Source: an uncultured Alphaproteobacteria bacterium
GTDB taxonomy: Bacteria > Pseudomonadota > Alphaproteobacteria > HIMB59 > GCA-002718135
Assembly: GCA_902530685.1 (NCBI GenBank)
Contig: CACAAZ010000002.1
Coordinates: 2,103-66,102, forward strand
DNA length: 64,000 nucleotides
Direction: 5' to 3'
Every line of letters starts with the position of its first letter. Position 1 is the first letter of the stretch. The notes under the pieces were generated by a model. The model saw nothing but the letters and a program-made list of their open reading frames with translations. It did not search any database and was not told the DNA's origin. This document shows, in pieces, positions 22,888 to 43,340 of this stretch. The translations under genes and the position numbers were made by a program.

Positions 22888-22913
22888 ATATTTCTTACAC
22901 AATAAAGAAATAT
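22888..22913. promoter_or_regulatory. inverted repeat ATATTTCTT-N8-AAGAAATAT in the aminotransferase/pta divergent promoter
   Basis: Perfect 9-bp arms read directly at 22888..22896 and 22905..22913. Confidence 0.3.
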
Positions 22914-22955
22914 CATAGGAAAAATTGTAGCAGTGGTATAGAGAGAATACCAAAT

Positions 22956-24747: not shown

Positions 24748-25515
24748 CTACTTGGCTGTCCATCCTCCATCAATAACTAGTGAAGAACCAGTCATCATTG
24801 ATGCAGCATCTGAAGCAAGATACACCACAGCAGTAGCAATATCACTTTCTGTTGCTACTTTTTCTAAAGGTATATTTTCAATTACAGATTTTTTAAAACT
24901 TTTATCTTTAAAAAATTTTTTGACCATTGGGGTTTCTACAAATGTAGGACAAACGGAATTAACTCTAATGTTGTGCTTAGCCAAATCAATAGCCATACCT
25001 TTGGTAAGACCTTCAACACCAAACTTGGTCATATTATAAACACTTCTAAGAGGAGCTCCTACTTTACCTAACTGAGAAGAGATATTTATTATTGATCCAC
25101 CAATGTTTTTTCTATTTTTTGATTTAAGCATAACTTTTGTAGCTAATTGAGCAATATCGAATGATGCTTTAATATTAAGATCAACCACTTCACTCATATC
25201 TTTTCTTTTGATTTTGGTAAAATATTCAGGTCTATTTGTACCAGCATTATTTACTAATATGTCTAATTTTTTGATTTCAGAAAATATTTTTTTTATTTCT
25301 TTTAAATTAGTTATATCACACACATAATAACTACATTTCTTTTTGAGTTTTTTAATTTTGTTTTGAACAATTAAAAGATCTTTCTCTGTACGACTAAGAA
25401 TTATTACATTTGCACCTGCTTCTGCTAACGCTATAGCACATGCTTTACCTATGCCTTTGCCTGACCCTGTCACAAGAGCAGTTTTGTTGTTTACAGTAAA
25501 ATTTTTTAGAAACAT
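24748..25515 (-). CDS. short-chain dehydrogenase/reductase (SDR)
   Basis: TGSGKGIGKACAIALAEAG cofactor motif, NNAG, catalytic YNMTK. Confidence 0.85.
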   Translation of the reverse strand: MFLKNFTVNNKTALVTGSGKGIGKACAIALAEAGANVIILSRTEKDLLIVQNKIKKLKKKCSYYVCDITNLKEIKKIFSEIKKLDILVNNAGTNRPEYFTKIKRKDMSEVVDLNIKASFDIAQLATKVMLKSKNRKNIGGSIINISSQLGKVGAPLRSVYNMTKFGVEGLTKGMAIDLAKHNIRVNSVCPTFVETPMVKKFFKDKSFKKSVIENIPLEKVATESDIATAVVYLASDAASMMTGSSLVIDGGWTAK

Positions 25516-25528
25516 TTAATCTGATTAT

Positions 25529-26188
25529 TTACAATGAAAAAATAGATTGATCTAATAAATTCATTTTTTTAATACACATTTGAAAACCATCTTCTAGGTG
25601 GTAATCACCTGGAAACCCAATGCATTTAATTCCAGCGTTTACGGCAGAATTACTACTTTCTTCAGTATCCTCTATTGCAAGACAATCTTCTGGCTGTAAA
25701 TTTAATTTGTCTAATGTGACTTTGTATATTTCTGGATGTGGTTTTTCATTTTTAACAAATGATTTATTACCAATAAAGTCAAATTCTTCTTTTGAAATTT
25801 GACCGGAAAGACTTTCAAATACTGCATCGACATTATTTAAAGTTGTAGAAGTTGAGAAAGCAAGTTTAATATTATTATCTTTTGTATACTTAATTATTTC
25901 ACCAACGCTCTTCCTTAATTTTTGTTTATTCCGAATAATGTACGAGCTAAAGATTTCTGTTTTTCTATTCCTAATTTGTAAAGCATTTACATTAGTGTTA
26001 TTTTTTTCAGCAAAATCTTCCACTCTTTTTGTCCCACCAGATTTTTTTAACAAAATTTTATAGTCTTGCTCGTCCCAATACCAATCAAGGCCAGCTTCTT
26101 TAAAAGCTTCATTAAATGAGTTACGTTGAATGTTAGAAGATTCAATTAGTGTCCCGATAGACCCAAATAGAAGTGCTTTATATTTCAT
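25529..26188 (-). CDS. HAD-superfamily-like protein with degenerate motif I
   Basis: HAD motifs III/IV present (EKPHPEIY; IEDTEESSNSAVNAG), but motif I reads LLFGSIGTL instead of hhhDxDGTL. Confidence 0.6.
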   Translation of the reverse strand: MKYKALLFGSIGTLIESSNIQRNSFNEAFKEAGLDWYWDEQDYKILLKKSGGTKRVEDFAEKNNTNVNALQIRNRKTEIFSSYIIRNKQKLRKSVGEIIKYTKDNNIKLAFSTSTTLNNVDAVFESLSGQISKEEFDFIGNKSFVKNEKPHPEIYKVTLDKLNLQPEDCLAIEDTEESSNSAVNAGIKCIGFPGDYHLEDGFQMCIKKMNLLDQSIFSL

Positions 26189-26206
26189 AAGATTAGAAAT
26201 TTATTA

Positions 26207-27088
26207 TTAACCTTTTACTGCTCCAGCAGTTAAACCACTTATTAATTGTCTTTGGAAAAACATGATTATCATAAAAAGTGGTGCAGTTGCAGAAACAACA
26301 CTTGAGACTGCCCACATATAATTTCCACTATGTTCAATTGTACCTAAATAAGCATTAATTTTAGGAACCATTGTATAATTCTGCTGATTTAATAGAAGTG
26401 AAGTAACTGTAAAATCATTATAGGCTAACATCATACTAAATAAACCTGCTGTAACAACTCCAGGCCACATAACAGGCATTATAACAAAGCGAAACGCTTG
26501 AAAATACGAACAGCCATCAATTAGTGCACTTTCATCTAACTCTTTAGGAACTGTTTTAAAGAAAGAGTAGAGTAACCATAATGTAAAGGGTTGATTGATT
26601 GCAACTAAAACAATTATGGTAGTTGGAAGTATGCCCCAAACGTTCAATTGGAAGAAAGGAAACAGATAACCAGAAACTAATGTAATGTGTGGCATCGCTC
26701 TAAAAATCAAGGCAGCTATTAAAATCCAAAAAGTATATTTATATGTCGATCTAGACAAGGCATAAGCACCTAATGTTCCTAAAAATAAAGAGATCGTAAC
26801 AACTGAAACTGTAATAATAATTGTATTCATTGTTGCTTTCCAAAATTCACCTTCTGTCCAAGACTCTACATATGCCTTAACTGTAGAGGTATCTCCTGTT
26901 TCTATCAAAGTATTAACTCCTGTGACTGCAAACATCCAATCAGCTCTTGAGAAAAAGTCGGCTTTTACTTTAAATGATCCCCAAAAAGTCCATATAAAAG
27001 GAAACACAGAAATAATTAACCAAGCAAGAATAAAAAAACTATTTAATAAAATTAGTTGTTTTGAGTATCTGTTAATTTTTGATTCCAT
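26207..27088 (-). CDS. carbohydrate-type ABC transporter permease (MalG/UgpE-like)
   Basis: 6-TM protein; EAA loop DESALIDGCSYFQAFRFVIMPVMWPG. Confidence 0.85.
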   Translation of the reverse strand: MESKINRYSKQLILLNSFFILAWLIISVFPFIWTFWGSFKVKADFFSRADWMFAVTGVNTLIETGDTSTVKAYVESWTEGEFWKATMNTIIITVSVVTISLFLGTLGAYALSRSTYKYTFWILIAALIFRAMPHITLVSGYLFPFFQLNVWGILPTTIIVLVAINQPFTLWLLYSFFKTVPKELDESALIDGCSYFQAFRFVIMPVMWPGVVTAGLFSMMLAYNDFTVTSLLLNQQNYTMVPKINAYLGTIEHSGNYMWAVSSVVSATAPLFMIIMFFQRQLISGLTAGAVKG

Positions 27089-27089
27089 A

Positions 27090-28118
27090 TTATCTTTCTG
27101 TCCTAAATTCTCTCCATGTTCTTATAAGTACTGGTGTTAATAGAATTGCTACACCAATAATAGTTAACATAGATGTTGCTCCTGCGGACCCAAATAACAT
27201 TTTGTTTTCACTTCTTAAGTCGTTATAAATCATCCAAGAAAGTGATTGAGCAACTCCTTCAGCAGCGAACCCAATTATTGGCTCAAGAACCCTAAAATTA
27301 TCCATTAGACAAATTAATATAATAAATGTTGCTACCGGATAAAGATGTGGAATAACAATGTGTCTGACTCTTTCATATCTTGAGGCGCCATCTATGATCG
27401 CTGCTTCAATTGGATCTTGAGGAACAGTTTGTAATGCAGCATAAAAAACAACAAATGCAAATGGAGTATTGTGCCAAATACCATAAATAATCAAAGTAAT
27501 CCAAGTCAATTGACTGGAAGACTTTAGTGATAGATTTGGATCATCAAATAAGAATTGAATAAATGAACCTAATATTCCTTTAGCATCTATCATCCAAAAT
27601 AAAACGAGAGATCCAATCAATGGTGTTACAATCATAGGCAGTATAACACCAAAAATGGTTGGGCCTTTTAAGCTTTTTGTAATTGTATTTACACTTAAAG
27701 CAACGATGAAACCTAAAACTACAACTGGTGGTGTAACTGCAAAACAAAATGTGAGTGTAAATAAAAGTGCTTTGTAAAAAGGTAAATTTAGTAAAATATC
27801 TGTAAACTCTGCTATCGATGAGGAATTAGTCCAGGCTTCTTTAATTTCATCAAAAGCCAAATGGTTTCTGTCGCCGTATGTTCCTAAACCATTAAACCTT
27901 CCAAGAGGTTGTTCTTCTTGTAATTTTGTTGTAGCTTCAATATCAACTTTTGTTTCCGTTTTACATCCAAATGGATCACATTTTTCTACTTCCATTAAAA
28001 TTTGTTCAGGCTCGATATGAAGAGACTGAAAAAAACTAGAAATAATTGGAAGACCAATAAATAATAACATTGCCAATCCACTTGGAAAGAAGAACCAAAA
28101 GAATGTTCTGTGGGGCAT
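27090..28118 (-). CDS. carbohydrate-type ABC transporter permease (MalF/UgpA-like)
   Basis: EAA loop EAAIIDGASRYERVRHIVIPHLYP; large first periplasmic loop. Confidence 0.85.
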   Translation of the reverse strand: MPHRTFFWFFFPSGLAMLLFIGLPIISSFFQSLHIEPEQILMEVEKCDPFGCKTETKVDIEATTKLQEEQPLGRFNGLGTYGDRNHLAFDEIKEAWTNSSSIAEFTDILLNLPFYKALLFTLTFCFAVTPPVVVLGFIVALSVNTITKSLKGPTIFGVILPMIVTPLIGSLVLFWMIDAKGILGSFIQFLFDDPNLSLKSSSQLTWITLIIYGIWHNTPFAFVVFYAALQTVPQDPIEAAIIDGASRYERVRHIVIPHLYPVATFIILICLMDNFRVLEPIIGFAAEGVAQSLSWMIYNDLRSENKMLFGSAGATSMLTIIGVAILLTPVLIRTWREFRTER

Positions 28119-28130
28119 CTATTTCTTACT

Positions 28131-28164
28131 AAAAAAAAAGTGGAACATAATAATGTTCCACTTT
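28131..28164 (-). terminator. intra-operon rho-independent terminator/attenuator after the binding-protein gene
   Basis: On the minus strand GTGGAACAT-tatt-ATGTTCCAC (28140..28161), followed by a run of 9 T. Confidence 0.75.
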
Positions 28165-28184
28165 ATCATAAATATTTATACGGT

Positions 28185-29420
28185 TTATAGAAAACCTTGC
28201 TCAGTAGCTTTTGCTACATAAGCAGCTTCTACATCCGCTAATGCTTTTTCAGCAGACTCATTTCCTTGTAGAAATTCAACAAGTTCTGTACTCAAAGCAC
28301 CATGTAATAGACTCATATATGGTAAGCTTGGGTATGGTGTTGCACCTCTGTTAGCAGCGTCAACAACTGGTCCTGCTGTATCTCCTGGTGAATAACCATC
28401 AATCAACCAAATTGTTGCATTTGGATTAGCATTTGCCATTTCTGTTGAAGTTGCTGCACCTAAAAGAGCTCTAAATGATGCTTCTGCATTTGCATCAGAA
28501 GTATTCGTTGCAATTCCAAAACCATCCCACCAAAGAGTTGTTGCTGGTTTACTTCCACCACCTACAGATGGAGAAGGAGCTAATCTAGTATCAGCTTTAA
28601 TTGCTTGATCACCTTCATCATCTAACAATGAAGCTGCACCTGAATTCCAGATATGCATTAATGCTACATTACCAGACTCCCATTCTTCTTTAACTGCATT
28701 TGTATCTTGAGTTAAGAAATCAGGGTTACTTACTTCTGTTAATCTTTTAAGCATATTAAGAGCAGCTACTCCTTTAGCGTTATTTACACTAACTTCAGCT
28801 GTCCCAGCTTTAAAGAAATCACCTCCGTGACCAAGGTACATGTTTACAAACTCTTGACCTAGGTTCCATCCAGATTTGAAAGCACCAGCGTATGGGTTAG
28901 CCATTTTGCCAGATGCTTTAATTTTTTCTGCAGCTGCAATTACTTCTTCGTATGTTGAAGGAACTGCGATACCTAAATCATTAAGAATACTTTCTCTATA
29001 CCAAAGATGTTGAGCATTAGCCATAAAAGCTATTGCATAGATCTTTCCATCAATCACAATTTTTTGGTTGTCTTGTAATGCACTTCCGTATTTAGCAACT
29101 AAATCATCAAGTGGACGAATTAAGTTATCATTCATTAAAGTTGTAATTGAACCATTAGTTACAAGTTTAGCAGAGAATTCAGCTGGGTTAGCTGAAAGTG
29201 CTGCAACTTGTAATTTATTATGATCAACGGAATGTGTTACAGAAAAATCCGCATCAGGTCCTGCACAACTTTTTACTTCATCCATGAAAATTCTGTATGT
29301 TGTAAATTCGTTTGCTAGAATCTTTATTGATCCATCTGTTACTCCACAAGGTGAGTGCCCACCGGCATATGCACTTGTGCTAACAAATGTGAACAATAGA
29401 GCTATTAATAGTTTTTTCAT
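28185..29420 (-). CDS. ABC transporter substrate-binding protein, family 1 (sugar/polyol type)
   Basis: Signal peptide MKKLLIALLFTFVSTSAYA; ~410 aa, family-1-like; heads the permease genes. Confidence 0.8.
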   Translation of the reverse strand: MKKLLIALLFTFVSTSAYAGGHSPCGVTDGSIKILANEFTTYRIFMDEVKSCAGPDADFSVTHSVDHNKLQVAALSANPAEFSAKLVTNGSITTLMNDNLIRPLDDLVAKYGSALQDNQKIVIDGKIYAIAFMANAQHLWYRESILNDLGIAVPSTYEEVIAAAEKIKASGKMANPYAGAFKSGWNLGQEFVNMYLGHGGDFFKAGTAEVSVNNAKGVAALNMLKRLTEVSNPDFLTQDTNAVKEEWESGNVALMHIWNSGAASLLDDEGDQAIKADTRLAPSPSVGGGSKPATTLWWDGFGIATNTSDANAEASFRALLGAATSTEMANANPNATIWLIDGYSPGDTAGPVVDAANRGATPYPSLPYMSLLHGALSTELVEFLQGNESAEKALADVEAAYVAKATEQGFL

Positions 29421-29442
29421 ATATTTCCCCTTATTAATAAAG

Positions 29443-29455
29443 TGTGAAATTCACA
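29443..29455. promoter_or_regulatory. palindrome TGTGAA-A-TTCACA in the 5' leader of the binding-protein gene
   Basis: Perfect 6-bp arms, 23-35 nt upstream of the ATG at 29420. Confidence 0.25.
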
Positions 29456-29511
29456 TTTAAGTATAAATCCTTTATATTGGTATTAGAAAATAATGCAATA
29501 ATATGAATTGA

Positions 29512-29529
29512 TATTCAAGATTTTGAATA
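29512..29529. promoter_or_regulatory. candidate operator TATTCA-N6-TGAATA (copy 1)
   Basis: Perfect palindrome 21 nt upstream of the LacI-family gene; the same motif recurs at 32158, 36341 (N7) and 36361. Confidence 0.5.
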
Positions 29530-29549
29530 TTGAAATGGGGGGATAATTC

Positions 29550-30548
29550 ATGAGTTTTAAAAAGACTGCGACATCACAGGACGTAGCAAAACTAGCAGGA
29601 GTATCCCAATCAGCTGTTTCAAGATGCTTTACTAAAGGTGCCAGCATTTCTAGTAGAACAAAGTTAAGAGTTTTAGAAGCAGCCAAGAAATTAAAGTATA
29701 AGGCGCCCTACACATCATCTAATTTAGCATCTAATGATGATAGTGGATTGGTAGCTGTCATTTTACCCTATGTTACGAGCAGATATTATCCAGAAGTTTT
29801 AATTGAGTTACATGAAGCACTTAGAAATGGAGGCTTTAGAATTTTATTAATTACGACTGATGATGGCGAAGAATTAGATGAAAAATTAATACAGCCATAC
29901 TTAAAAGAAAAACTCATTGCAATAATATCAGCAACAAAACCTACTGATAAATTTGTTGAAGATTGCAATCAAAAAAGAATACAATTTATTGCTTATAATA
30001 GAAGTTGGAATATACCAACGATAAGTTCCGTTGCGTGTGATCATCGTAACGGAGGAGAATTAGTTGCAGAATATTTTACAAAGAAAAATCATAAAAATAT
30101 TGGCATCATTGAAGGGCCAAAAGGATCTTTTGTAAGTGATGAGCGATGCAAAGGTTTTAAAAATTATCTTAAAAATAATAAAAAAATTAAATTAAATATT
30201 GAAAAAGGTTTTTTTACTTACGAAGGTGGATATCAAGCAACAGAAAAAATTTTCAATAAAAAGATAAGTGCAATATTTTGCGCTGATGATACGATGGCTT
30301 TCGGATGCTTAGATTATATTAAAAAAAATACTTCATTAAAAACACCTTCTCAATTAGAAATTATTGGTTATGACGATATATCAATGTCAGCTTGGGAATC
30401 ATATAACCTTACAACTGTCAGACAACCTATTAGACAAATGTCAAAACTAGCAACTCAATTAATAAATGAATATATTAAAGATCCAGATTTTGAGCCTATA
30501 AATCATATTGTACAGGGAAGACTTATAAAAAGAAAAACTACAAAATAA
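29550..30548 (+). CDS. LacI-family transcriptional regulator
   Basis: N-terminal HTH ATSQDVAKLAGVSQSAVSRCF plus periplasmic-binding-protein-like sugar-sensor body. Confidence 0.85.
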   Translation: MSFKKTATSQDVAKLAGVSQSAVSRCFTKGASISSRTKLRVLEAAKKLKYKAPYTSSNLASNDDSGLVAVILPYVTSRYYPEVLIELHEALRNGGFRILLITTDDGEELDEKLIQPYLKEKLIAIISATKPTDKFVEDCNQKRIQFIAYNRSWNIPTISSVACDHRNGGELVAEYFTKKNHKNIGIIEGPKGSFVSDERCKGFKNYLKNNKKIKLNIEKGFFTYEGGYQATEKIFNKKISAIFCADDTMAFGCLDYIKKNTSLKTPSQLEIIGYDDISMSAWESYNLTTVRQPIRQMSKLATQLINEYIKDPDFEPINHIVQGRLIKRKTTK

Positions 30549-30549
30549 T

Positions 30550-30969
30550 TTACTTAAATTTTAATCCCATCTGTTCGAAGACACCATGATTATCTACCAT
30601 AACGTAATTATCTAAAAATTTTCCATCTTTAATGGTCCAAAAATCTGAAAATTGCATTTTGATAGATTTGCCTGTTGGCTCCACTCCAAGATATGTTCCA
30701 CTATGTGTGCCTGTTAAAAATCCTGTTGCACTAATCCACTCACCTTCAGCAACCACAATATCATTTTTTACGTGATAATCTGGAAATGCTTCATAAAAAG
30801 GTTTTAGAACTTTATATTTAAAATTTTCTATACCATGAATATCACCAAAACCTGGAGGACCGTGCCAAACCATATCATCATGCCAGTACTTATGTTGTGC
30901 ATTTAGATCTTGAGCATTAAGTGCATCATACATATCAGCTAATAATTTTTTACTTTCATCTAAAGTCAT
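30550..30969 (-). CDS. SnoaL/NTF2-like (ester-cyclase type) protein, single domain
   Basis: GTHSGTYLGVEPTGKSIKMQFSDFWTIKDGKFLDNYVMVD signature; WHDDMVWHGPPGFG block shared with the second domains of 32213.. and 36417.. Confidence 0.7.
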   Translation of the reverse strand: MTLDESKKLLADMYDALNAQDLNAQHKYWHDDMVWHGPPGFGDIHGIENFKYKVLKPFYEAFPDYHVKNDIVVAEGEWISATGFLTGTHSGTYLGVEPTGKSIKMQFSDFWTIKDGKFLDNYVMVDNHGVFEQMGLKFK

Positions 30970-32105
30970 TTTTTATCTCCTAAAATTTGCATTAGTATTG
31001 CAAGCTCATTAAAACCAGTCCACTCTTTAGTAATTTTATTATTTTTAATTTCCCATTGAGTGATTCCCCACAAATACACTTCTCTATTAGTTGGTTGGCC
31101 ATATGAGCCATTACCTTTATGCGTTCCTACAGCGCCCCAACGAACCGATACTAAGTAACCATCTTTTGTATTGCCCATCCAGTATAGATCTTCAATACTG
31201 AGTGCAAGATCAGGGAACGAAGCTAAAAGTGAAATTATAAATTTTCTTAATTGCAAAACTCCTTTAAATTTACGACCAGTTGAACCTTCAAATTCTACCT
31301 TACTCGAGTATGCTTTATTTATTGCAGAAAAGTTTCGCCTATTCCAAATTGTATCATAAACTGCATGAACAAACTCTCTTACATTTGTAATTTTATCTGG
31401 AATATCAAAACTAATTGGTTTTAATTTAGTAATATTTCTTGTTGGTTTGGAGTTTTTAAAATGAGGGGAATAGGGTCCTGCAATTCCCTCATCGACAAGT
31501 TGCTTGGCAACCTGATTTACATCTAATCCGAGTTGTTTAATTAAACCTGCTGTATCGTAAACAACATTTTCGTAATAAATTTCATTATTTTTGGCTACAC
31601 AATTCGCAATACAAAATAATCTTACTTTTTTACCAGTTGGTTTGGAAAATTTACTAAATCCAGTATTTGTTCCAGTAATAATTGTTCTATGCGAAGTATG
31701 AAAACTTACATTTTCATCTCCTGCCCAAATAACTTCATCTGCAAATAATCGAATATCTGGAAAAGCGTTGTTTGTATGTACAGTATCAGCTACAATTTTT
31801 TCAGATCCAAATTGTAGACCAAATTCATCCCAAACTCTGCAATCTTTACTGTAGGTGTCATAGATGTAGCCAATATTTTTTTCTTCCCAGATTTGATATG
31901 TAATCCTTACAATATAATCGATTATATTTTTATACTGATCTTCAAACCCCTTCATTGATTGATGTTTAAGTTTTTTTGGTTTTGGATTTAATGATTTAGC
32001 TGTTCCTCCACCTCCATATACTTTTAATGAAATATCATAACTCTTAGGCATATGATTATCTTGGAGGGGTTCTGGTCTTTTATCTGTAATTTTATTAAAT
32101 TTCAT
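30966..32105 (-). CDS. tandem SnoaL/NTF2-like two-domain protein (type 1)
   Basis: Two signature copies (GTNTGFSKFSKPTGKKVRLF...NNEIYYENVVYD; GTHKGNGSYGQPTNREVYLW...NNKITKEWTGFN); paralogue of 34350..35342. Confidence 0.65.
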   Translation of the reverse strand: MKFNKITDKRPEPLQDNHMPKSYDISLKVYGGGGTAKSLNPKPKKLKHQSMKGFEDQYKNIIDYIVRITYQIWEEKNIGYIYDTYSKDCRVWDEFGLQFGSEKIVADTVHTNNAFPDIRLFADEVIWAGDENVSFHTSHRTIITGTNTGFSKFSKPTGKKVRLFCIANCVAKNNEIYYENVVYDTAGLIKQLGLDVNQVAKQLVDEGIAGPYSPHFKNSKPTRNITKLKPISFDIPDKITNVREFVHAVYDTIWNRRNFSAINKAYSSKVEFEGSTGRKFKGVLQLRKFIISLLASFPDLALSIEDLYWMGNTKDGYLVSVRWGAVGTHKGNGSYGQPTNREVYLWGITQWEIKNNKITKEWTGFNELAILMQILGDKK

Positions 32106-32157
32106 AATTTGTATTTGTAATGAGATACATTTAAAAATTTTTTAAAGCAATGAAATT

Positions 32158-32175
32158 TTATTCAAAAAAATGAAT
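32158..32175. promoter_or_regulatory. candidate operator TATTCA-N6-TGAATA (copy 2)
   Basis: Perfect palindrome, 53 nt upstream of the ATG at 32105 (-) and 38 nt upstream of the ATG at 32213 (+). Confidence 0.5.
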
Positions 32176-32212
32176 ATTGTCTTTTTTAGTTTATTAATAT
32201 AATCAAAATGAA

Positions 32213-33217
32213 ATGACTGATCTCCAAGCAGAAAAAAAATTAGTATTAGATTATTTAAATGAGTTAGATAGTTGCAACATTGATTCATTATCTGAAGTTA
32301 TATCCAAATACGCATCAGAAGATTTTAGTATGAAATGTACCCACCCATTCAACGAACTAGGTAGTATAGATCTTGTTGCTAATAATCTTTGGAAACCAAT
32401 TAAAGATTCATTTTCACCTATACAACGTCGATTAGATATATTTTATGCTGGGATAAATTCACTAGATAAAAATAAAGGGAAATGGATCTCCAGTATGGGT
32501 CATTTCATGGGTGTTTTCAATAAGCCGTTTGTAGGCCTTAAACCAAATAATAAATCAATTTTATTAAGATTTGCAGAATTTTACAAAGTGGAAAATAACA
32601 AAATTAGTGAAGGGGCTATTTTTTTAGATGTAATGAATTTAATGCAGCAACTAGGTCTTTCTATAATTCCTGAATCTACAGGTCTTGTTTGTGTAACACC
32701 TGGACCAAAGAATCATAAAGGTTTAAAATTTGATATTTCTAGTGAAAGTGAAAGTCAAAAAACATTAGATTTAATTCATAGAATGCGCGATCGACTTGTT
32801 AAAGGATCCAAAATGCAATCTTATAAAGAAGAATTAGAATTAGATTGGCATAATGACATGATTTGGTGGGGACCAGGAGGTATTGGAGCTTCTTATACTA
32901 TTGATGGTTATCAAAAAGGTCACACAAAACCATTTCAAGATGGTTTAGAGTTTGTTCGTTTCAATGGACACATACTTAGTAGCTCTGAAGATGATCTTGG
33001 AGGTTGGTTTGGTTGGCCAAATTTAATTATGAAACCTAAAGGAGAATATTTAGGATTAACAAATGCAAGTGATATTGAATCAGAAATGAGAGTTGTAGAT
33101 TTATATCGAAGAGATGGAGATAAGCTGGCTGAAAACTGGATCTTTATTGATCATTTACATTTTTTAAAAAAACTAGGAGTGGATCTTTTAGAAAGAGCAA
33201 AATTTTTAAATCAGTAA
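32213..33217 (+). CDS. tandem SnoaL/NTF2-like two-domain protein (type 2)
   Basis: Signatures GLKPNNKSILLRFAEFYKVENNKISEGAIFLD and WHNDMIWWGPGGIG...MRVVDLYRRDGDKLAENWIFID; paralogue of 36417..37514. Confidence 0.65.
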   Translation: MTDLQAEKKLVLDYLNELDSCNIDSLSEVISKYASEDFSMKCTHPFNELGSIDLVANNLWKPIKDSFSPIQRRLDIFYAGINSLDKNKGKWISSMGHFMGVFNKPFVGLKPNNKSILLRFAEFYKVENNKISEGAIFLDVMNLMQQLGLSIIPESTGLVCVTPGPKNHKGLKFDISSESESQKTLDLIHRMRDRLVKGSKMQSYKEELELDWHNDMIWWGPGGIGASYTIDGYQKGHTKPFQDGLEFVRFNGHILSSSEDDLGGWFGWPNLIMKPKGEYLGLTNASDIESEMRVVDLYRRDGDKLAENWIFIDHLHFLKKLGVDLLERAKFLNQ

Positions 33218-34345
33218 TTAGATAACTTTTGAGGCAAGTTTAGTACCTTCAACTAATGCATGGAGCTTTTCATAACAAATTTTTTCATCAATTTTTCCAA
33301 AACCAGCAAATGTACTAAAACCACAATCTGTCCCTGCCATTAATTGATCTTTTGGAATGACTGTAGAAAATTGAATTAATCTATCTGCAACAACTTCTGG
33401 ATGTTCAACAAAATTAGAGGTTGAGTCGATTACGCCAGGTACTAGGACTTTATCTTTTGGTAACTTTATATCTTGAAAAACTTTCCATTCATGTGCGTGT
33501 CTAGGATTAGAAGATTCAATGAGAAAGTATTTTATCTTTGATTTTAAAATAATAGGTAATATTTTCTCCAAAGCAATATCGTGTGTGTGGGGTCCTTCAT
33601 AATTACCCCAACATATATGCATTCTAGTTTGTTCAACATTTACATTAGATAATGCTGAGTTTAGGCATTCAATTTGTAGTTCTGCACGTTTAATAAACTC
33701 ATCTTCAGATAAATTTTTAAAATTCATATGTCTTGCTAAAGCAAGGTCTGGGCAATCTAATTGAACTTGGATATCTGATTTTGTTATTAGCTCATATTCT
33801 TTAGCCATAATATTAGATAATTTATCCAAATATTCATCTTCTGTGCTATAAAATTTATTTGGCATAAAAACATTTATGACACCAGGTGATGCTGAGTTCA
33901 TAAATGCATGTCGGTGATTTAGTTTATCAAGTGAATTTTTAAAATTATTTATATCCTGTAGAAGAGAAGTTTCATCTTTTACTTTTAATTCGTTTGTGCA
34001 ACATGGCCTGGTATAAGTTGGTGTGCCACCACTTTTAGCAATCTTTTCTTTATATTCTGGAAAATCGTCAAGATCAGCAGGTGCTCTTCTTTCGCTTTCA
34101 CCTGAGAACCCATCAATTCTATCTTTAATATATGTAGCGTAGCTAATTTTACTCATCTCCCCATCACTGATAAAATCAATTCCAACATCAAGTTGTCTCT
34201 TAACAATACTTTCTACGTTATTTTTTAATACTTCATCAAAACTACTTTTACTAAATTTCTCTCCTTTATCTTTTGCAAATAAAAAATCTGAAAGTTCTTT
34301 TGATCTAGGAAGGCTTCCAACATGTGTTGTCAAAATATTAGACAT
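33218..34345 (-). CDS. cobalamin-independent methionine synthase family II (core-MetE/YxjH-like) protein
   Basis: MSNILTTHVGSLPRS start; Zn-ligand positions HICWG, LIESSN and TDCGFS. Confidence 0.75.
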   Translation of the reverse strand: MSNILTTHVGSLPRSKELSDFLFAKDKGEKFSKSSFDEVLKNNVESIVKRQLDVGIDFISDGEMSKISYATYIKDRIDGFSGESERRAPADLDDFPEYKEKIAKSGGTPTYTRPCCTNELKVKDETSLLQDINNFKNSLDKLNHRHAFMNSASPGVINVFMPNKFYSTEDEYLDKLSNIMAKEYELITKSDIQVQLDCPDLALARHMNFKNLSEDEFIKRAELQIECLNSALSNVNVEQTRMHICWGNYEGPHTHDIALEKILPIILKSKIKYFLIESSNPRHAHEWKVFQDIKLPKDKVLVPGVIDSTSNFVEHPEVVADRLIQFSTVIPKDQLMAGTDCGFSTFAGFGKIDEKICYEKLHALVEGTKLASKVI

Positions 34346-34349
34346 TAAA

Positions 34350-35342
34350 TTAACCTGTTTTTAATAAAATCTGTTTCCAGATCATAGTTTCATCATAGAG
34401 AACCCATTCATTTTTAATACCTCTTTCTCCAAATTCAACATGATTAATACCCATTATATAAATTTTCGAATTAGAGGCTTTCCCAAAAAGACCATCCCCT
34501 TCATGTTTACCTACCAAAGACCATCGAACTGAAGCTTTTTTAGGTTCATATTTTTCTTCAGAAAAAGCAATGTGCTCAACTGAGAACAATGCTTTAGGAA
34601 AAGCATCTCTTAATTGTTTCCAAAATTTTATTACCTCATCTCTACCATGGTGAGTATTTCCCCCTGGTTGAAATTGCTGTATGGCTCTGTCATAATTATC
34701 ATTTATTGTTTTGTCTAAATTAATGTTCATAATAGAAGTTAAGATATTTGCATATAATTCTCCAATGTTACCAGATGCTAATACAGGAGATTTATAAATT
34801 GATTTAACAGGTGTATTTTCATCAAAGGGTTTACTAGCTTTTTCAGGACCGCCTTCATCATTAATTAGATTACTTGCAAATTTCTTAGGGTCAATTCCAA
34901 TTTGTCTCACAATTGCTCCTTGATCTCTCACAAGCCACTCATCATAAACTTGATTATTCATGCATGCACAATCAGCAATAGTTCGGTAATATAGTTTTTT
35001 TCCTGTCGCTTTCCCATACATCCCATCAACAGAATGAGTAGAAGTTGATAAAATGCGATGTGATGAAAAATATCCCTCATCATCATTTCCTGTCCAAATT
35101 ACATCTTCACCTAAAAGTGTTCTGTCTGGAAATAGTTTTTTACTAGCATAGGTACTTTCAATTACTGGGTCTGCACCATAAATTACTCCAGATGGAGATC
35201 TTGTAGGTGTGGGGAGGCTTACATTTGGAGTATCAGCATAATAATCTCTTATTGCTTCAACATCATTGTTTTCCCAAATTTGATATGTGATCTTTAAAAT
35301 ATAATCAGGAAAATCTTTGAATTGTGCATCAAATCCTTTCAT
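34350..35342 (-). CDS. tandem SnoaL/NTF2-like two-domain protein (type 1)
   Basis: KGFDAQFKDFPDYILKITYQIWE start parallels KGFEDQYKNIIDYIVRITYQIWE of 30966..32105; signatures GKATGKKLYYR...NNQVYDEWLVRD and GKHEGDGLFGKASNSKIYIMG...GIKNEWVLYD. Confidence 0.65.
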   Translation of the reverse strand: MKGFDAQFKDFPDYILKITYQIWENNDVEAIRDYYADTPNVSLPTPTRSPSGVIYGADPVIESTYASKKLFPDRTLLGEDVIWTGNDDEGYFSSHRILSTSTHSVDGMYGKATGKKLYYRTIADCACMNNQVYDEWLVRDQGAIVRQIGIDPKKFASNLINDEGGPEKASKPFDENTPVKSIYKSPVLASGNIGELYANILTSIMNINLDKTINDNYDRAIQQFQPGGNTHHGRDEVIKFWKQLRDAFPKALFSVEHIAFSEEKYEPKKASVRWSLVGKHEGDGLFGKASNSKIYIMGINHVEFGERGIKNEWVLYDETMIWKQILLKTG

Positions 35343-35353
35343 TTAATTAATAT

Positions 35354-36325
35354 TTAATTAGTTTGCCGTATTATAAATAAATTACCATCATGATCACTTA
35401 TCTGCCTGATTGAACGTAGTGAATTTTTTGGTACTGAAAAGGTATCTTTTTCTTTAATTACTACTTTATCTCCATCACAATCTATTTCCCATTCGCCAGA
35501 TAAACAATGATACACTTCTGATTTCTCTAGTTTGTATTCATGTATATGAGCACTCTTGCCGTTCAGAAGTGAAAGGCTAAAACCTGTTGAATGCGGTATA
35601 TTTGGAGTAAAAGATTTATCATGAATTTGAAACTGATCAATATAGTTAATAATTTTATTAGATTGATAGTGATCATCATCAACAAAGTATTTATCTTTAT
35701 CATTAAATCGAATAACAAATTTTTCTATGTCTTCTGAAGAGTAATGATCGAAACTCTCTAATTCATTATCTTTTAGTGGTTGAATAATTTTAGTCTCATC
35801 TGTTATTTTTTGTTTCTCCGTGTCAATTAAAGAATTATCATTCATTAATACCATGCCAGATTTTTTTGCATCTTTTAAAAGTTTAGGCGTCCAAGTAATA
35901 ACACCTGGATCATTTTCACCTAACACAACAAACATTAGCGCCTCTTCATCACTTACATTTTGAAAACCTCTGAACATGTTTGTAGGAAAAGAAGCAATAT
36001 CACCTTTTTTTAGGATCACTTCTCCCTCTGTGCCATCAACGCCCCAGTAAAAACGCCAAGCACCTGAATGAATAATAAAAACTTCTGCAGTTGTATGACT
36101 ATGTAAACCAGAACCATTCATTGGAGCAGCGCTTACCGCACCAATATTAAATCCATGTTCTTCAGGTATTTTAACGTTTTGTTTAGCATCTTCACTGACA
36201 CCAGGGCCAATTACTGAATAGTTTTTTCTATCTTGATGGCCTTTTAATTTTCCCTCAACAAATGGAATATTACTAGGAATAAGTTCATCGAATTTTGCTA
36301 ATCTAGATGTAATATTAATTGACAT
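35354..36325 (-). CDS. bicupin protein
   Basis: Two cupin motif-1-like blocks, GSGLHSHTTAEVFIIHSG and SAHIHEYKLEKSEVYHCLSG; beta-rich; 323 aa. Confidence 0.6.
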   Translation of the reverse strand: MSINITSRLAKFDELIPSNIPFVEGKLKGHQDRKNYSVIGPGVSEDAKQNVKIPEEHGFNIGAVSAAPMNGSGLHSHTTAEVFIIHSGAWRFYWGVDGTEGEVILKKGDIASFPTNMFRGFQNVSDEEALMFVVLGENDPGVITWTPKLLKDAKKSGMVLMNDNSLIDTEKQKITDETKIIQPLKDNELESFDHYSSEDIEKFVIRFNDKDKYFVDDDHYQSNKIINYIDQFQIHDKSFTPNIPHSTGFSLSLLNGKSAHIHEYKLEKSEVYHCLSGEWEIDCDGDKVVIKEKDTFSVPKNSLRSIRQISDHDGNLFIIRQTN

Positions 36326-36340
36326 ATTGTTATGATCTTT

Positions 36341-36359
36341 TATTCATTTTTTTTGAATA
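36341..36359. promoter_or_regulatory. candidate operator variant TATTCA-N7-TGAATA (copy 3)
   Basis: Read directly; lies immediately next to copy 4. Confidence 0.4.
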
Positions 36360-36360
36360 T

Positions 36361-36378
36361 TATTCAAAATAATGAATA
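36361..36378. promoter_or_regulatory. candidate operator TATTCA-N6-TGAATA (copy 4)
   Basis: Perfect palindrome between the bicupin gene (ATG 36325, -) and 36417 (+). Confidence 0.5.
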
Positions 36379-36416
36379 AATCAATTATTATTTAACAATA
36401 GTGTTATTAAATTATT

Positions 36417-37514
36417 ATGGCAAATAAAATACAAAACTTTGATACAGGTGAAAAAGGTAACTCAAAAATAATTCATTTAGATCTTGATCCAAAAATAAAT
36501 ATCGAAAACAAAATATATTTTAAAAATTTATTAAATAAAATTGCTGAATGTTCTATTGAAGATTTAGAAGATAATCTTGAAAATTTATATCACGTAGATG
36601 CAGAGCTTAATGGCTTTCATCCAGTTAATGAAATTAAGGGAATTGAAGAAATAAAAAATAAATATTTAATACCTTTAAAGAAAGCATTTCCTGATCTTGA
36701 AAGAAGAAATAATCTTGTTATTGGTGGAGCATTCAGAGATAAAGTTTTTGTTTCATTTGTTAGTCATTTAACTGGAACATTTTCAAATGAATGGTTAGGC
36801 GTTAAACCAACAAACAAAACAATTCATCTTCGAACATGTGAAGCACATCAAATAACTAATAACAAAATAATAAAATCCTACACATTGATTGATACTGTAG
36901 ATTTTATTCGTCAGGCTGGTCATTGGCCCATTAATAATTCTCTTGGTGTAGAGGGTATGTGGCCTTCTCCTATCACAGGTGATGGAGAAAATAATCAAAA
37001 TTTAGATAAGGAATTATCTCTTCAATCTTTAAATCAAGATTTAACTATGCAAAGAAGTTTAAATATTAAACCCGAGACTGAACCAGGTCTTACAAAAGAT
37101 CAAATAAGAGAAAAATTAATTAATCATCCTCAACAAGATTATTGGCATCCAAAAATGATGTGGTATGGACCAAGTGGTATAGGCACAGCTAGAGGTTTAG
37201 ATGGTTTTGTTGATCATCACCAACTCCCATTTAGACTTACATTTAAGGACAGAGATTATTGGAAAATCGGTCATTATATTGAAATTGGAGATGGAAATTA
37301 TTCTATGACTGGGGGTTGGCATAGTATCCAATGTGTCCATGGATCTAGTGATTGGCTAGGGTATGAACCAACTCATAAAAAAATAACAATGAGAGTAATG
37401 GATTTTTATTTACATCATGAAGGACTTATTAGGGAAAATTGGGTACCAATTGATATAGCACACATACTTGATCAAATAGGTATTGATATCTTTAAATTAA
37501 TTCATAAAAAATAA
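36417..37514 (+). CDS. tandem SnoaL/NTF2-like two-domain protein (type 2)
   Basis: Signatures [32 protein letters not shown] and [14 protein letters not shown]...[22 protein letters not shown]. Confidence 0.65.
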
Positions 37515-37516
37515 TT

Positions 37517-38839
37517 ATGGCAATAGAATATTTAAAAAAAGGATTAGATGAAAAACAAAGAATTGAAGATAATGATAAAGTAAAAAAAATTGTTGAGGAA
37601 ACATTAAGTAAAATTGAGTCAGAAGGCGATAAACATATTAGAGAGTTATCTCAAAAATTTGATAACTATTCTCCAGATAGTTTTCGATTAAGTGAAGATC
37701 AAATTAATCAATTAATGAGTGAAGTCTCTGATGATGACAAAGAAGATATAAAATTTGCTCAAAAACAAGTGCGATCATTTGCTGAAGCACAACTCAAAAC
37801 TTTAAGTGAATTAGAAGTAGAAACGCATCCAGGTGTGATTCTTGGTCATAAAAATATACCAGTACAAGCAGTTGGATGTTATGTCCCTGCAGGAAAATTC
37901 CCAATGGTAGCTTCTGCCCATATGTCAGTTGTTACTGCCTCTGTTGCTGGTGTACCAAGAATAGTAGCCACTACTCCACCTTTTAAAGGTAAACCAAATC
38001 CAGCAGTTGTTACAGCAATGAAAATGGGAGGTGCTCACGAAATTTATGTCTTAGGAGGAATGCAAGGAGTTGGTGCGATGGCTATTGGTACAGAAACAAT
38101 TAAACCTGTAGATATGCTTGTTGGACCCGGCAATGCATTTGTTGCTGAAGCAAAAAGACAATTGTATGGCAAAGTTGGTATCGATTTATTTGCTGGTCCA
38201 ACTGAAACAATGGTTATTGCAGATGAAACTGTTGATGGTGAAATATGTGCAACAGACTTATTAGGACAAGCAGAACATGGATATAATTCTCCTGCAGTAA
38301 TGATAACAAACTCAAGAAAACTTGCAGAAGAAACATTTAAAGAAATTGATAGAATTTTACAAATTTTACCTACTAAAGAAACAGCAAGTACTAGCTGGAG
38401 AGATTATGGAGAAATGATTTTATGTGATACTTATGAGGAGATGTTGTCTAAAGCAAATGATATAGCCTCAGAGCACGTTCAAGTTATGACAAAAAAAGAT
38501 GATTGGTTTTTAGAAAATATGACATCTTATGGAGCTCTATTTTTGGGTGCTAGAACTAATGTTGCTAATGGTGATAAAGTCATAGGTACTAACCATACTC
38601 TTCCTACTAAAAAAGCTGGAAGATATACTGGTGGTTTGTGGGTCGGTAAGTTCATTAAAACCCACACTTATCAAAAGATTACAACCGATGAAGCAGCTAC
38701 ACTTATTGGAGAATATGGATCAAGACTTTCACACCTTGAGGGATTTATTGGTCACGCTGAACAATGTAATGTTAGAGTGAGAAGATATGGTGGACTTAAT
38801 ATTGAGTATGGGAAACCAGCATCAAAAATAAAAAATTAA
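37517..38839 (+). CDS. histidinol-dehydrogenase-family NAD-dependent dehydrogenase (HisD paralogue; HpsN-like candidate)
   Basis: HisD hallmark blocks [32 protein letters not shown] and EGFIGHAE; located outside any his-operon context. Confidence 0.8.
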
Positions 38840-40710
38840 ATTTTATTATATTGTTTTAAATAAAGGATGACCTCATCTGCTAATTCTTCTGCAGATTTTA
38901 TTTTTGTTTCCAAAACAATTTCAGGTGATGACGGTATTTCATAATTTGAGTCAATCCCAGTAAAATTTTTTAATTTGCCAGATCTAGCTTTTTTATACAA
39001 ACCTTTTGGATCTCTTTTTTCACACTCCTCTATTGAGGTATCAACATATATTTCTATAAATTCATCACTCTCTAGTAATTCACGAGCCATTTTTCTTTCA
39101 GAATTAAAAGGTGAAATAAAAGAAACAATTGTTATTAGTCCAGCATCAACCATTAATCTAGATACTTCTGAAATTCTCCTTATATTTTCAACACGATCTA
39201 CATCTGTAAATCCTAAATCTTTGTTTAATCCATGTCTCACATTGTCACCGTCTAATAAGTAAGTATGTTTTCCTAGTTTATGTAACTTTTGCTCAATTAT
39301 ATTAGCTATAGTAGATTTTCCTGACCCTGATAATCCTGTAAACCATAAAACACATGGCTTTTGCCCGTTAATAGAGGATCGTAAGTTTTTATTTATTGAC
39401 ATTTGATGCCATGAAATATTTGATGCTCTTCTTAGTTCATGCTCAATAACACCTGCTCCTACAGTTTGATTATTGAATTGGTCAATTATTACAAAACTTC
39501 CTAATTTTTTATTATTTTTATAGGGATTAAAAATTGTATTTTTATTTAATGCAACTTTGGCATATCCAATTTCATTCAAGTTTAAAAATTTTGAAGCAAT
39601 TTTTTCGAATGAATTTATATTTATTTTATGAACTAAATCTGTGATCTTTCCTATTGTTTGAAAGTTTATAAATTTAAAGATATAATTTCTTTCAGGTATC
39701 ATATGTTCTTTATTCATCCAAATTATATGGGATGCAAATTGATCAGATAAAAAATAATTATGATTTTTAACAGAGCATAATAATTCACCTCTAGAAATAT
39801 CAACTGCTCTATCTAATGTTAGTGTTACCGCTTGCTCTTTAACGGCAAAGTCACTCTCTCCTTTTGGAGTTAATATTTTAATAATTTTAACTTTCTCTTT
39901 ACTTGAAAGGACATGAACCTCATCATTAACTTTTATTTTTCCTGAAGTGATTGTACCGCTATATCCTCTAAAATCAGAGCTTGATCTATTAACAAATTGA
40001 ATCGGTAATGAAAAAATTTCTTCTTCTAAAGATTCATTTAGACTAATTTCTTCAAGTTCATCTATTAAAGATTTTTCATTGTACCAGTTTATGTTTGAAT
40101 TTTTTTGAAATACATTATCACCAACTAATGCAGATATTGGAATAAACTTTTGTAAATTAAATTTAAATTCACTAGAAAATTTTTTAAAAGAAGAAATAAT
40201 ATCTTTAAATTTTTTTTGATCATAATTAATTAAATCCATTTTATTTACCGCAACTATAATATTTTCAATTCCAAGAAGAGATAAAATAAATGTGTGTCTT
40301 TTAGTTTGGTCAAGAATACCTTTAGTTGCATCAACTAATATAATTCCAACATCTGAGTTCGATGCTCCTGTAACCATATTGCGAGTGTATTCCTCATGGC
40401 CAGGAGTATCAGCAATAATAAATTTACATTTTTCAGTCTCAAAATAACGATAAGCAACATCTATAGTTATTCCCTGCTCTCTTTCAGCTTGTAAACCATC
40501 AATTAATAATGCTAAATCAATTTGCTTACCTTGTGTTCCATACTTTTCACTTTCAATCTTAATTTGAGTTAGCTGATCACTATAAATATTTTTTGAATCA
40601 AATAATAGTCTGCCAATAAGTGTTGATTTACCATCATCTACGGAACCACAAGTTAAAATTTTTAATTGTTTTTTATTATTTTGATTTTGAAAAAAAGTTT
40701 CTATATCCAT
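38836..40710 (-). CDS. cysNC: bifunctional sulfate adenylyltransferase subunit 1 / adenylylsulfate kinase
   Basis: GTPase motifs [17 protein letters not shown] and NKMD; C-terminal APS-kinase P-loop [11 protein letters not shown]. Confidence 0.9.
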
Positions 40711-41609
40711 TAAAAATAACCTTCTTGTTTTTTTTTCTCCATAGATCCAATTTGATCATTATCAATTAATCTTCCTTGTCTTTCTGAATATTTTGACTCT
40801 AGTAATTCAATAATGATTTCTTCAACATTAGTTGCATCAGACTCCACAGCGGCAGTTAATGGATAACAGCCCAATGTTCTAAATCTTACTTTTTTTTGTT
40901 CTATTTTTTCATTTTCCCTAATTTTTAAACGATCATCATCAACCATAATCATCATATCATTTCGTCTAATAACTGATCTTATTTTGGAAAAATATAACGG
41001 GACAAGTGGAATATTTTCCTGATAAATGTATTGCCAAATATCTATTTCAGTCCAATTAGATAATGGAAAAACTCTAACACTTTCATCTTTATCTATATTA
41101 GTATTGAACAAATTCCAAAGCTCTGGTTTTTGATTTTTTGGATCCCAACGATGTTTTTTGTCTCTGAATGAAAAAATTCTTTCTTTTGCTCGTGATTTTT
41201 CTTCGTCCCTTCTCGCACCTCCAAATGCAGCATCAAATTTATATTTATCTAATGCTTGAATTAATGACTGTGTTTTCATTATATCTGTATGAATTTTTGA
41301 GCCACTAGAAATAGGATTTATATTATTTCGCACCCCTTCTTTGTTAATATGAACCAATAAGTCTAAATTATACTTCTTAACAGTCACATCTCTAAAGTTT
41401 ATCATTTCTTTAAATTTCCAAGTTGTGTCTATGTGCATTAATTTAAATGGAATTTTATTTGGATAAAAAGCTTTTTGAGCTAAATGGAGCATTACTGATG
41501 AATCTTTTCCAATCGAATAAAGCATTACAGGATTTTCAAATTCAGCTACTACTTCTCTGATTATATGAATGCTTTCAGATTCTAGTTTTTCAATATGTGA
41601 TAATTTCAT
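40710..41609 (-). CDS. cysD: sulfate adenylyltransferase subunit 2
   Basis: [35 protein letters not shown] and [10 protein letters not shown]. Start placed at MKLSH (ATG 41607..41609); the longer ORF reaches 41636. Confidence 0.9.
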
Positions 41610-41610
41610 G

Positions 41611-42414
41611 CTAATCTGCTTTTGATAAATTTCCATAAGCTATAAAATCAGGATTTAAAATATCTTCTTTAGTATTGTATAAAATATCTTTGTTATCAAT
41701 TGTTTTCAATTTTCCTCCTGCTTCTTCTAAAATAATATGACCAGCAGCTATATCCCATTCGGAAGTTGGTCCCAATCTTGGATAAATATCAGCCTCACCC
41801 TCAGCAAGGATGCAAAACTTAAGAGAACTACCGATTGTGATTAGTTCAAAATTCGTAAATTTTTTTTCTACCCAATTCTGAAAATCTTTACTCGAATGTG
41901 ATCGACTACCAATAACCCTAGTAGTTATATTTTTCTCTTTTTTTATATTTATTTTATTAAAATCTTTTAAAGTACTTAAATTTGAATTAGTTTTTAATTT
42001 ATAACATCCATTATTTTTAAGTGCATAGTATAAAATAGATTTTGCAGGAGAATAAATTATTCCAAAAATTGGATAATTATTTTCAATCAATGAAATATTG
42101 ACCGTAAACTCTCCATTTCTATTTATAAATTCTTTTGTTCCATCTAGAGGATCTATAAGCCAATATGTATTCCAATCTTTTCTATTTTCCCAACTAACTA
42201 AACTTTCTTCACTCAAAATTGGGATGTTTGGCTCGAGTCTTTTTAATCTGTTAACTATTAAATTATTTGAATTTATATCAGCTTGTGTAATTGGTGATTT
42301 GTCTTTTTTAGAATTAACAATAATTTCATTATCATAGATCTTAAGTATTTCTCTTCCTGAATCTATTGCAATGTTTAAGAGTTCTAAAATTCGTTTTTCA
42401 TGGTTAAGTTTCAT
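41611..42414 (-). CDS. cysQ: 3'(2'),5'-bisphosphate nucleotidase
   Basis: Inositol-monophosphatase-fold motifs [13 protein letters not shown] and [16 protein letters not shown]; sits in the cysD/cysNC context. Confidence 0.8.
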
Positions 42415-42421
42415 TTTTAAA

Positions 42422-43333: not shown

Positions 43334-43340
43334 TAATAAA

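Follow-up and report, generated by a model that had tools for sequence, protein, structure and literature searches.

Arrays of palindromic half-sites as candidate operators of a LacI-family regulator in a SAR11 importer and SnoaL gene cluster

Gene cluster and half-site arrays

In a 64,000-nucleotide stretch of contig CACAAZ010000002.1 (assembly GCA_902530685.1; hereafter the window, with a G+C content of about 30%), a gene for a LacI-family regulator lies between an operon for a sugar-type ATP-binding cassette (ABC) importer and a group of genes for SnoaL-domain, bicupin, MetE-like, and histidinol-dehydrogenase-family (HisD-like) proteins. The identities of these genes, first read from the sequence in a preliminary description, were borne out by Pfam (Table 1), and the closest homologues of the regulator are found in single-cell and metagenome assemblies of Pelagibacteraceae (SAR11). 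The three divergent promoter regions of the cluster share the palindrome TATTCA-N6-TGAATA, the copies of which are very probably operators of the adjacent regulator, as judged by sequence comparison. One LacI-family repressor would then most likely switch the whole import-and-breakdown cluster, a proposed regulon of 14 genes in six transcription units (24748-38839).

A pattern search of the window located exact copies of TATTCA-N6-TGAATA at 29512-29529, 32159-32176, and 36361-36378, that is, three copies compared with 0.03 expected, a number reached in none of 100 dinucleotide shuffles. The single exact variant with a seven-base spacer, TATTCA-N7-TGAATA, lies at 36341-36359, and all N6 and N7 copies are confined to the three divergent promoter regions. 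No further intergenic copy, either exact or with one mismatch, was found elsewhere in the 64-kb window, in agreement with the preliminary description, which had not seen the motif in other long intergenic regions. When up to two mismatches were allowed, 22 matches were counted compared with 16 expected; because this is the chance level, the signal is carried by the perfect copies. The positions described earlier for the first and third copies, for the N7 variant, and for the half-sites flanking the first copy (TGAAT at 29504-29508 and TGAAA at 29531-29535) hold, as do the distances from the first copy to the start codons of the LacI-family gene (29550) and the binding-protein gene (29420), but the second copy had been placed one base off, at 32158-32175.

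The copies had been regarded as single 18-mer sites. The palindromes themselves stand, but each region is in fact an array of up to four alternating half-sites arranged as [H1-N6/7-H2]-N1/2-[H3-N6-H4], with the half-site consensus 5'-(T)TG[A/C]ATA-3'. In array 1, H3-H4 corresponds to the first copy of the earlier description and the two bases between H2 and H3 are ga. This array ends 20 nt ahead of the lacI start codon and about 8 nt ahead of the lacI ribosome-binding site, and it lies 72-109 nt upstream of the binding-protein start. At the H1 position of array 2, the window carries the degenerate sequence TTTTTA (32139-32144), whereas locus L001 and other close relatives of the window genome (98-100% identical proteins) carry ATTTCA in the arrangement ATTTCA-N6-TGAAAT-tt-TATTCA-N6-TGAATA; H1 of array 2 has therefore been lost in the window genome. 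Four perfect half-sites are present in array 2 of locus L204. Array 3 combines the N7 and N6 copies, 1 nt apart, and occupies 38 of the 91 intergenic bases that separate two divergent operons.

Table 1. Candidate operator arrays, regulator gene, and proposed target transcription units in the window
Feature	Position	Strand	Description
Candidate operator array 1	29492..29529	.	Between the binding-protein operon and lacI; H1 AATGCA 29492-29497, N6, H2 TGAATT 29504-29509, N2, H3 TATTCA 29512-29517, N6, H4 TGAATA 29524-29529
Candidate operator array 2	32151..32176	.	Between genes 30966-32105 (-) and 32213-33217 (+); H2 TGAAAT 32151-32156, N2, H3 TATTCA 32159-32164, N6, H4 TGAATA 32171-32176
Candidate operator array 3	36341..36378	.	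Between the bicupin gene and gene 36417-37514; TATTCA-N7-TGAATA 36341-36359, 1 nt, TATTCA-N6-TGAATA 36361-36378
LacI-family regulator, 332 aa	29550..30548	+	Pfam LacI helix-turn-helix and Peripla_BP; proposed binder, proposed autoregulated
Proposed target operon 1	24748..29420	-	CUT1-type binding protein (Pfam SBP_bac_1), two permeases, HAD hydrolase, short-chain dehydrogenase/reductase (SDR); Pfam; short intergenic gaps
Proposed target operon 2a	30550..32105	-	Double-SnoaL protein (379 aa), SnoaL protein (139 aa); Pfam; array 2 upstream
Proposed target gene 2b	32213..33217	+	SnoaL-domain protein, 334 aa; Pfam
Proposed target operon 3a	33218..36325	-	Bicupin, SnoaL-domain protein (330 aa), MetE-like; Pfam; array 3 upstream
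Proposed target operon 3b	36417..38839	+	Double-SnoaL protein (365 aa), HisD-like protein (440 aa); Pfam

Beside array 1, a second palindrome, TGTGAAATTCACA, is located at 29443-29455 and precedes the start codon of the binding-protein gene by 23-35 nt. Related loci retain it, and it reads TGTGAATTTCACA in L204 and L207, where the arms are kept and the centre is flipped. This palindrome differs from the LacI-type half-sites; with CRP-like arms, though at N3 spacing, it may be a site of another regulator.

Conservation in SAR11 and the operator of distant relatives

A locus scan with one genome per species yielded 25 SAR11 loci (regulator 69-100% identical) and 55 loci from other Proteobacteria (32-39%), and three further SAR11 loci from contig look-ups brought the SAR11 set to 28 loci and 467 kb. 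The SAR11 loci contain 52 exact N6 and 21 exact N7 copies, compared with 0.25 and 0.35 expected, respectively, and every exact copy is at one of three orthologous intergenic positions. The motif occupies the same promoter regions even in lineages in which the LacI protein is 69-75% identical, and the LacI gene is linked to the cluster in all loci examined. Phylogenetic footprinting and a pattern search in relatives, which the preliminary description had named as checks on a shared motif, find it kept at these three promoter regions, with no exact copy elsewhere in the orthologous loci. Synteny is conserved in SAR11, and the divergent lineages retain lacI and the segment that runs from the bicupin gene through the HisD-like gene.

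Within the arrays, the half-sites are invariant while the six-base spacers differ among lineages (AGATTT, AGGTTT, AGTATT, and ATATAT; AAAAAA and AAAAAT; AAATAA, AAATAT, TATTAT, and AATTAT). When the bicupin/SnoaL intergenic region was aligned for 14 unique SAR11 sequences, TTTATTCATTTTT..TGAATA.TATTCA.....TGAATAAATCAAT proved to be an invariant block, the rest of the 91 bp being poorly conserved; the architecture of array 3 is kept in essentially all SAR11 lineages. The four-half-site layout of array 1 upstream of lacI is common to all of them, with an interchange of TGCA and TGAA cores, as in ATTGCA-N6-TGAATA-aa-TATGCA-N6-TGAATA, AATGCA-N6-TGAATA-at-TATTCA-N6-TGCATA, and ATTGCA-N6-TGCATT-aa-TATTCA-N6-TGAATA. 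Since TGCA-type and TTCA/TGAA-type cores swap at identical positions in the SAR11 half-sites, a single protein has to recognise both types. An A occupies position -3 of the 18-mer in 82% of the unique sites, which gives TAT[T/G]CAA-N4-TTG[A/C]ATA as the SAR11 consensus.

The composition of the SAR11 clusters is modular. The ABC importer is replaced by a 40-62% identical version in divergent lineages (L013-L024, L204, L205, and L207), some lineages are without the three SnoaL genes and array 2, the genes flanking this array being missing, and other lineages carry extra genes for RraA-like, alpha/beta hydrolase, and additional SnoaL proteins. Those divergent promoters that remain still carry the operator arrays. 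In several divergent lineages a generalised match, AATTCA-N6-TGCAT[AT], lies within the coding sequence of lacI, at 10429 in L015, at 10417 in L021 and L022, and at 2889 in L024, and may be either an auxiliary operator inside the gene or a coincidence. A generalised match in the permease gene of L013 and L021 was rejected as an operator since it lies in coding sequence. A metagenome search with TATTCAANNNNTTGAATA gave at least 120 matches in unrelated AT-rich DNA (gut, soil, and others), none of the matches listed being in the cluster, and was uninformative.

The 55 distant loci again place the LacI homologue in a cluster with HisD-like, SDR, MetE-like, bicupin, and SnoaL genes, and some of them include a CUT1 importer. 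When 5-mer palindromes were counted without bias in these loci, the most recurrent were TGCAT-N4-ATGCA (27/55) and TTGCA-N6-TGCAA (26/55). Allowing two mismatches, TTGCATnCGnATGCAA matched 80 sites in 45 of the 55 loci, compared with 1.05 expected, and the operator takes the form TTGCAT-nCGn-ATGCAA in high-GC loci, ahead of lacI and of genes from the same families. None of the 80 sites is inside a recognised gene, and 56 precede a cluster homologue by no more than 300 bp (HisD 20, LacI 13, bicupin 9, Sno139 8, Sno365 7, SDR 7, and Sno334 6). As an even palindrome with a central CG, the predicted site is a textbook LacI operator, and the SAR11 half-sites have the same TGCA core at the same distance from the dyad. 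Conservation, linkage to the LacI gene, and the operators of distant relatives together lend computational support to the earlier proposal of a regulon under one regulator.

The cluster of LacI, HisD-like, SDR, MetE-like, bicupin, and multiple SnoaL genes occurs in Sphingomonadales, Hyphomonadaceae, Pseudomonas, Woeseia, Steroidobacteraceae, and SAR324 (among loci L026-L080, examples are L059 at 2752-20508, L076, L045, and L053). TonB receptors or SSF symporters replace or accompany the ABC system in the distant clusters, which also include an HpcH/HpaI aldolase and an Amidohydro_2 enzyme. In a Hyphomonadaceae locus, the cluster extends to genes for a TonB-dependent receptor, an SSF symporter, and three enzymes (HpcH/HpaI aldolase, Amidohydro_2 enzyme, and alpha/beta hydrolase), a gene content that suggests the catabolism of a sugar-like or sugar-acid-like compound. 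A literature search found no published function for this LacI/HisD-like/SnoaL cluster.

The regulator and its proposed mode of binding

The regulator possesses an N-terminal LacI helix-turn-helix (HTH) domain (PF00356, E = 1e-10, 41.7 bits compared with a cut-off of 27) and a C-terminal effector-type domain for which Peripla_BP_1, _3, and _4 all score above their Pfam cut-offs. Its matches in the PDB include CcpA, RbsR, and PurR over the full length, and the CcpA alignment covers the HTH. All 19 matches to NCBIfam equivalog families are far under their cut-offs, the best being RbsR (190.9 vs 382), with CcpA at 120 vs 442. The CytR equivalog NF008269 scores 130.1 bits compared with a cut-off of 436, and the regulator is therefore not a CytR orthologue; the DNA-binding domain of CytR (2l8n) is a weak PDB match (E = 0.0034).

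The recognition helix LAGVSQSAVSR is common to the SAR11 proteins and their distant orthologues. In contrast, the hinge, which was outside the search patterns, is canonical in the distant orthologues (YxPNA[I/M]A[R/S]xL), whereas in SAR11 the linker is one residue longer, Ser/Asn-rich, and different in each lineage (KAPYTSSNLASNDD, KPQTFLQDSQNIED, and KHQTIQHSFSSSVD). The hinge-helix motif of the family (YxPNxxARxL), through which the central CG is read, is thus present in the distant orthologues and absent from the SAR11 proteins, in which the otherwise conserved Tyr of TSYDVA is also replaced by Gln. The operator centre tracks this split, with n-CG-n in the distant taxa but A/T bases that are not conserved in SAR11.

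A possible mechanism can be proposed from these features. The SAR11 system has probably derived from the canonical TTGCAT-nCGn-ATGCAA operator system of other Proteobacteria, with the recognition helix retained and the conserved hinge helix lost, and the operators would correspondingly have lost their central CG. Two regulator dimers would probably sit side by side on an array, about 20 bp (two helical turns) apart. When bound, the regulator would repress lacI itself together with the operon of the CUT1-type ABC importer and the SnoaL/bicupin/MetE-like/HisD-like cluster on both sides. The arrays presumably overlap the promoters or sit just downstream of them: array 1 is close to the lacI start and array 3 fills 38 of 91 bases, so any promoters must overlap the arrays, and repression would occur by occlusion or roadblock. 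By analogy with family behaviour, an imported sugar-like solute or a pathway intermediate could release the repression.

For the pairing of half-sites, the outward-facing 18-mer is favoured as the dimer site, with a probability somewhat better than even. The spacer of this 18-mer is N6 in each of the three arrays, no half-site of array 1 or 3 is left unpaired, and statistical enrichment is seen in this register alone. The centres of its core 5-mers (ATTCA/TGAAT) are separated by 11 bp, a distance that suits unkinked DNA. The same regulator and regulon could instead use the inward-facing 14-mer TGAAT-N4-ATTCA (H2-H3), in which case the 18-mer would be a by-product of flanking auxiliary half-sites. 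This alternative, which is considered rather unlikely, keeps the ancestral LacI geometry (the TG...CA frame of the family), with the ancestral half-site TTGCAT pointing to the dyad, and it fits the distant-site variants TTGAAT and ATGAAT (C to A), in which the G never varies; furthermore, TGAATA-N2-TATTCA is perfect at array 1 in L012, L014, and L016 and at array 2 in L204. However, the H2-H3 gap is one base shorter at array 3 in every SAR11 lineage, H1 and H4 would be orphans though perfectly conserved, and the prevalent A at position -3 counts against it. The 14-mer alone is also not enriched in the window (11 vs 11.3 expected, at most one mismatch), and no enrichment of the combined three-half-site pattern was seen there. 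Mixed or other modes make up the remaining possibilities. Because TGCA is self-complementary, a single core change separates either register from the ancestral site, and the co-variation of TGCA and TGAA cores within pairs is mixed and phylogenetically non-independent as a guide to the dimer register.

Explanations that set the LacI-family protein aside fit the data less well. A different, unlinked transcription factor such as a global regulator might bind the motif, with the LacI protein as a bystander or acting at some other site, and the variable A/T-rich centre and the half-site spacing of 11-12 bp would suit other dimeric HTH families as well. This is improbable because the motif is restricted to the cluster in the 64 kb and in the 467 kb from related loci, accompanies the LacI gene from lineage to lineage, and grades into the TGCA-type LacI operator of distant orthologues, and because no other transcription factor is found near the cluster, within 10 kb on either side of the LacI gene. 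The other regulators of the window, a MarR-family gene followed by genes for an OmpR-type response regulator and a histidine kinase (49251-51711), are at least 13 kb away in a different neighbourhood with no motif copies nearby. Still less probable is a reading of the half-sites as promoter or architectural elements, either as -35-like TTGAAT boxes set back to back in divergent promoters or as IHF-like sites. Hexamers resembling -35 boxes (TTCAAA) are predicted inside H3/H4 at arrays 1 and 3, and TTCAA-N4-TTG is one mismatch from the IHF core. Nevertheless, the predicted promoter matches are at chance level, four alternating copies per region exceed the need of two promoters, the motif is missing from all other promoters of the window, and GC-rich genomes have a LacI palindrome centred on CG, and no -35 box, at the homologous position. 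That the copies arose by chance, or are relics of duplicated promoters of paralogous SnoaL genes, is practically negligible: several flanking genes are paralogous, but shuffle statistics exclude chance, the half-sites stay invariant as the spacers drift, and the three window regions resemble one another in nothing but the half-sites, which rules out a duplicated promoter.

Several points nevertheless weigh against assigning the palindromes to the LacI-family regulator. The support is wholly comparative, and the motif was scanned in the window and the 467 kb of related loci, a coverage that leaves some room for an unlinked factor. The identity of the recognition helix is partly ascertainment, because the peptide LAGVSQSAV was one of the two patterns that retrieved the loci. 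The AlphaFold model of the regulator shows no helix at residues 49-69, but with a pLDDT (predicted local distance difference test) score of 58.9 it is too poor to prove a disordered hinge. A central CG, present in 1173 of 1303 LacI-family motifs (PMC4052901), is missing from the SAR11 arrays; neither the N7 copy nor an array of four half-sites is typical of the family; and the otherwise invariant family G of the outer TG becomes T in the 18-mer register. Finally, promoter predictions that overlap the arrays are at chance level in such AT-rich DNA.

Related systems and the function of the cluster

The SAR11 switch appears to be an ordinary LacI-type local regulon in kind, with an unusual, loosened architecture. 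In a survey of LacI-family regulators (Ravcheev et al. 2014, PMC4052901), 1251 of 1303 motifs were even palindromes and 72% of the regulators were autoregulated; the CG centre was missing in 78 motifs and is thus typical but not universal. The present system resembles the local repressors of that survey in its LacI HTH and sugar-binding-like domain, the adjacent ABC importer and catabolic genes, and its proposed autoregulation. Even palindromes 20-110 bp upstream of start codons and the CG-centred 16-mer of the distant orthologues are further likenesses (PMC4052901). In contrast to those systems, the SAR11 arrays have no conserved central CG, include one conserved odd N7 copy, and contain up to four half-sites, and the hinge helix is not conserved.

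The closest known analogue is CytR of Escherichia coli. According to PMC3454398 (citing Pedersen & Valentin-Hansen 1997 and Jorgensen et al. 1998), CytR binds octamer half-sites with a TGCA core, and its unstructured interdomain linker relaxes the requirements for spacing and orientation. The SAR11 consensus is in register with the CytR optimum AATGCAAC-GC-GTTGCATT (PMC3454398), and the SAR11 system likewise combines an atypical, non-conserved linker with varying spacing (N6 and N7). Unlike those of CytR, its targets are not nucleoside genes, and flexible binding is here a matter of inference. CytR binds cooperatively with cAMP-CRP between tandem CRP sites; no CRP-type TGTGA-N6-TCACA sites were seen beside the arrays. 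The lac repressor shows that a LacI-family dimer tolerates one extra central base pair (O1 compared with the symmetric operator), and the N6 and N7 copies of SAR11 are analogous to this pair. In LacI, however, the hinge helix is folded, the CG centre is present, and the auxiliary operators are distant and looped, whereas the SAR11 half-site pairs are adjacent and neither the hinge nor the CG centre is kept. Operators of the CcpA/cre and Cra/PtxS types (TGWAANCGNTWWCA and TGAAAC-GTTTCA) share the family TG...CA frame with the inward SAR11 14-mer TGAATAnnTATTCA, but the latter is without a central CG and its presumed regulator is local, not global.

Loss of the hinge paired with loss of the CG centre would offer a clean natural example of regulator-operator co-evolution under AT drift, and a CytR-like loss of both, together with four-half-site arrays and a link to a widespread uncharacterised pathway, would place the system above routine. 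SAR11 bacteria are among the most abundant organisms of the ocean and have few regulators. Tentatively, and at slightly less than an even chance, the SAR11 branch of a LacI subfamily that is widespread and uncharacterised has lost the hinge helix and the CG centre and binds its four-half-site arrays in a CytR-like manner through flexible linkers; the 14-gene cluster would then be one of the few catabolic modules under transcriptional control in this streamlined bacterium, and the regulon with canonical operators marks a pathway widespread in Proteobacteria. If so, the pathway substrate could be found through the effector of the regulator. The regulon with its textbook operator is present in Sphingomonas, Erythrobacter, Pseudomonas, Woeseia, SAR324, and others, and the pathway is therefore broadly distributed. 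The conserved LacI regulon ties the sugar-type ABC importer to nine enzymes of uncharacterised function as a functional unit, and an unrecognised substrate should come to light through either the effector of the regulator or the ligand of the binding protein.

Among CUT1 proteins, the binding protein is a remote member, with trehalose/maltose (2e-11) and the sulfoquinovosyl-glycerol binder SmoF (7e-7) as PDB matches, and PDB sequence searches with the bicupin and a double-SnoaL protein found no solved-structure relative. Since the matches of the binding protein, MetE-like, bicupin, and double-SnoaL proteins are remote or missing, no substrate can be assigned from them. A literature search found nothing on a cluster of SnoaL, histidinol dehydrogenase, LacI, and cupin genes or on SnoaL in SAR11; papers on 2,3-dihydroxypropane-1-sulfonate (DHPS) and hpsN in SAR11 were set aside as descriptions of the cluster because they concern other genes. 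Rfam and tRNA scans of the window found nothing. The importer operon is without a gene for the ATPase (ATP-binding subunit), which must therefore be encoded elsewhere and could be a further member of the regulon.

The neighbourhood on both sides of the cluster (17802-23858 and 38836-45110) has a sulfur- or sulfonate-related flavour. It includes a sulfatase gene beside a second MetE-like gene, genes for a phosphate acetyltransferase, CysNC, CysD, and a CysQ-like phosphatase, an alanine dehydrogenase and a class-III aminotransferase that resemble the taurine:pyruvate aminotransferase/Ald pair, and a 589-aa thiamine pyrophosphate-dependent enzyme that is possibly Xsc-like. These genes hint that the substrate of the cluster might be sulfonated or sulfated.

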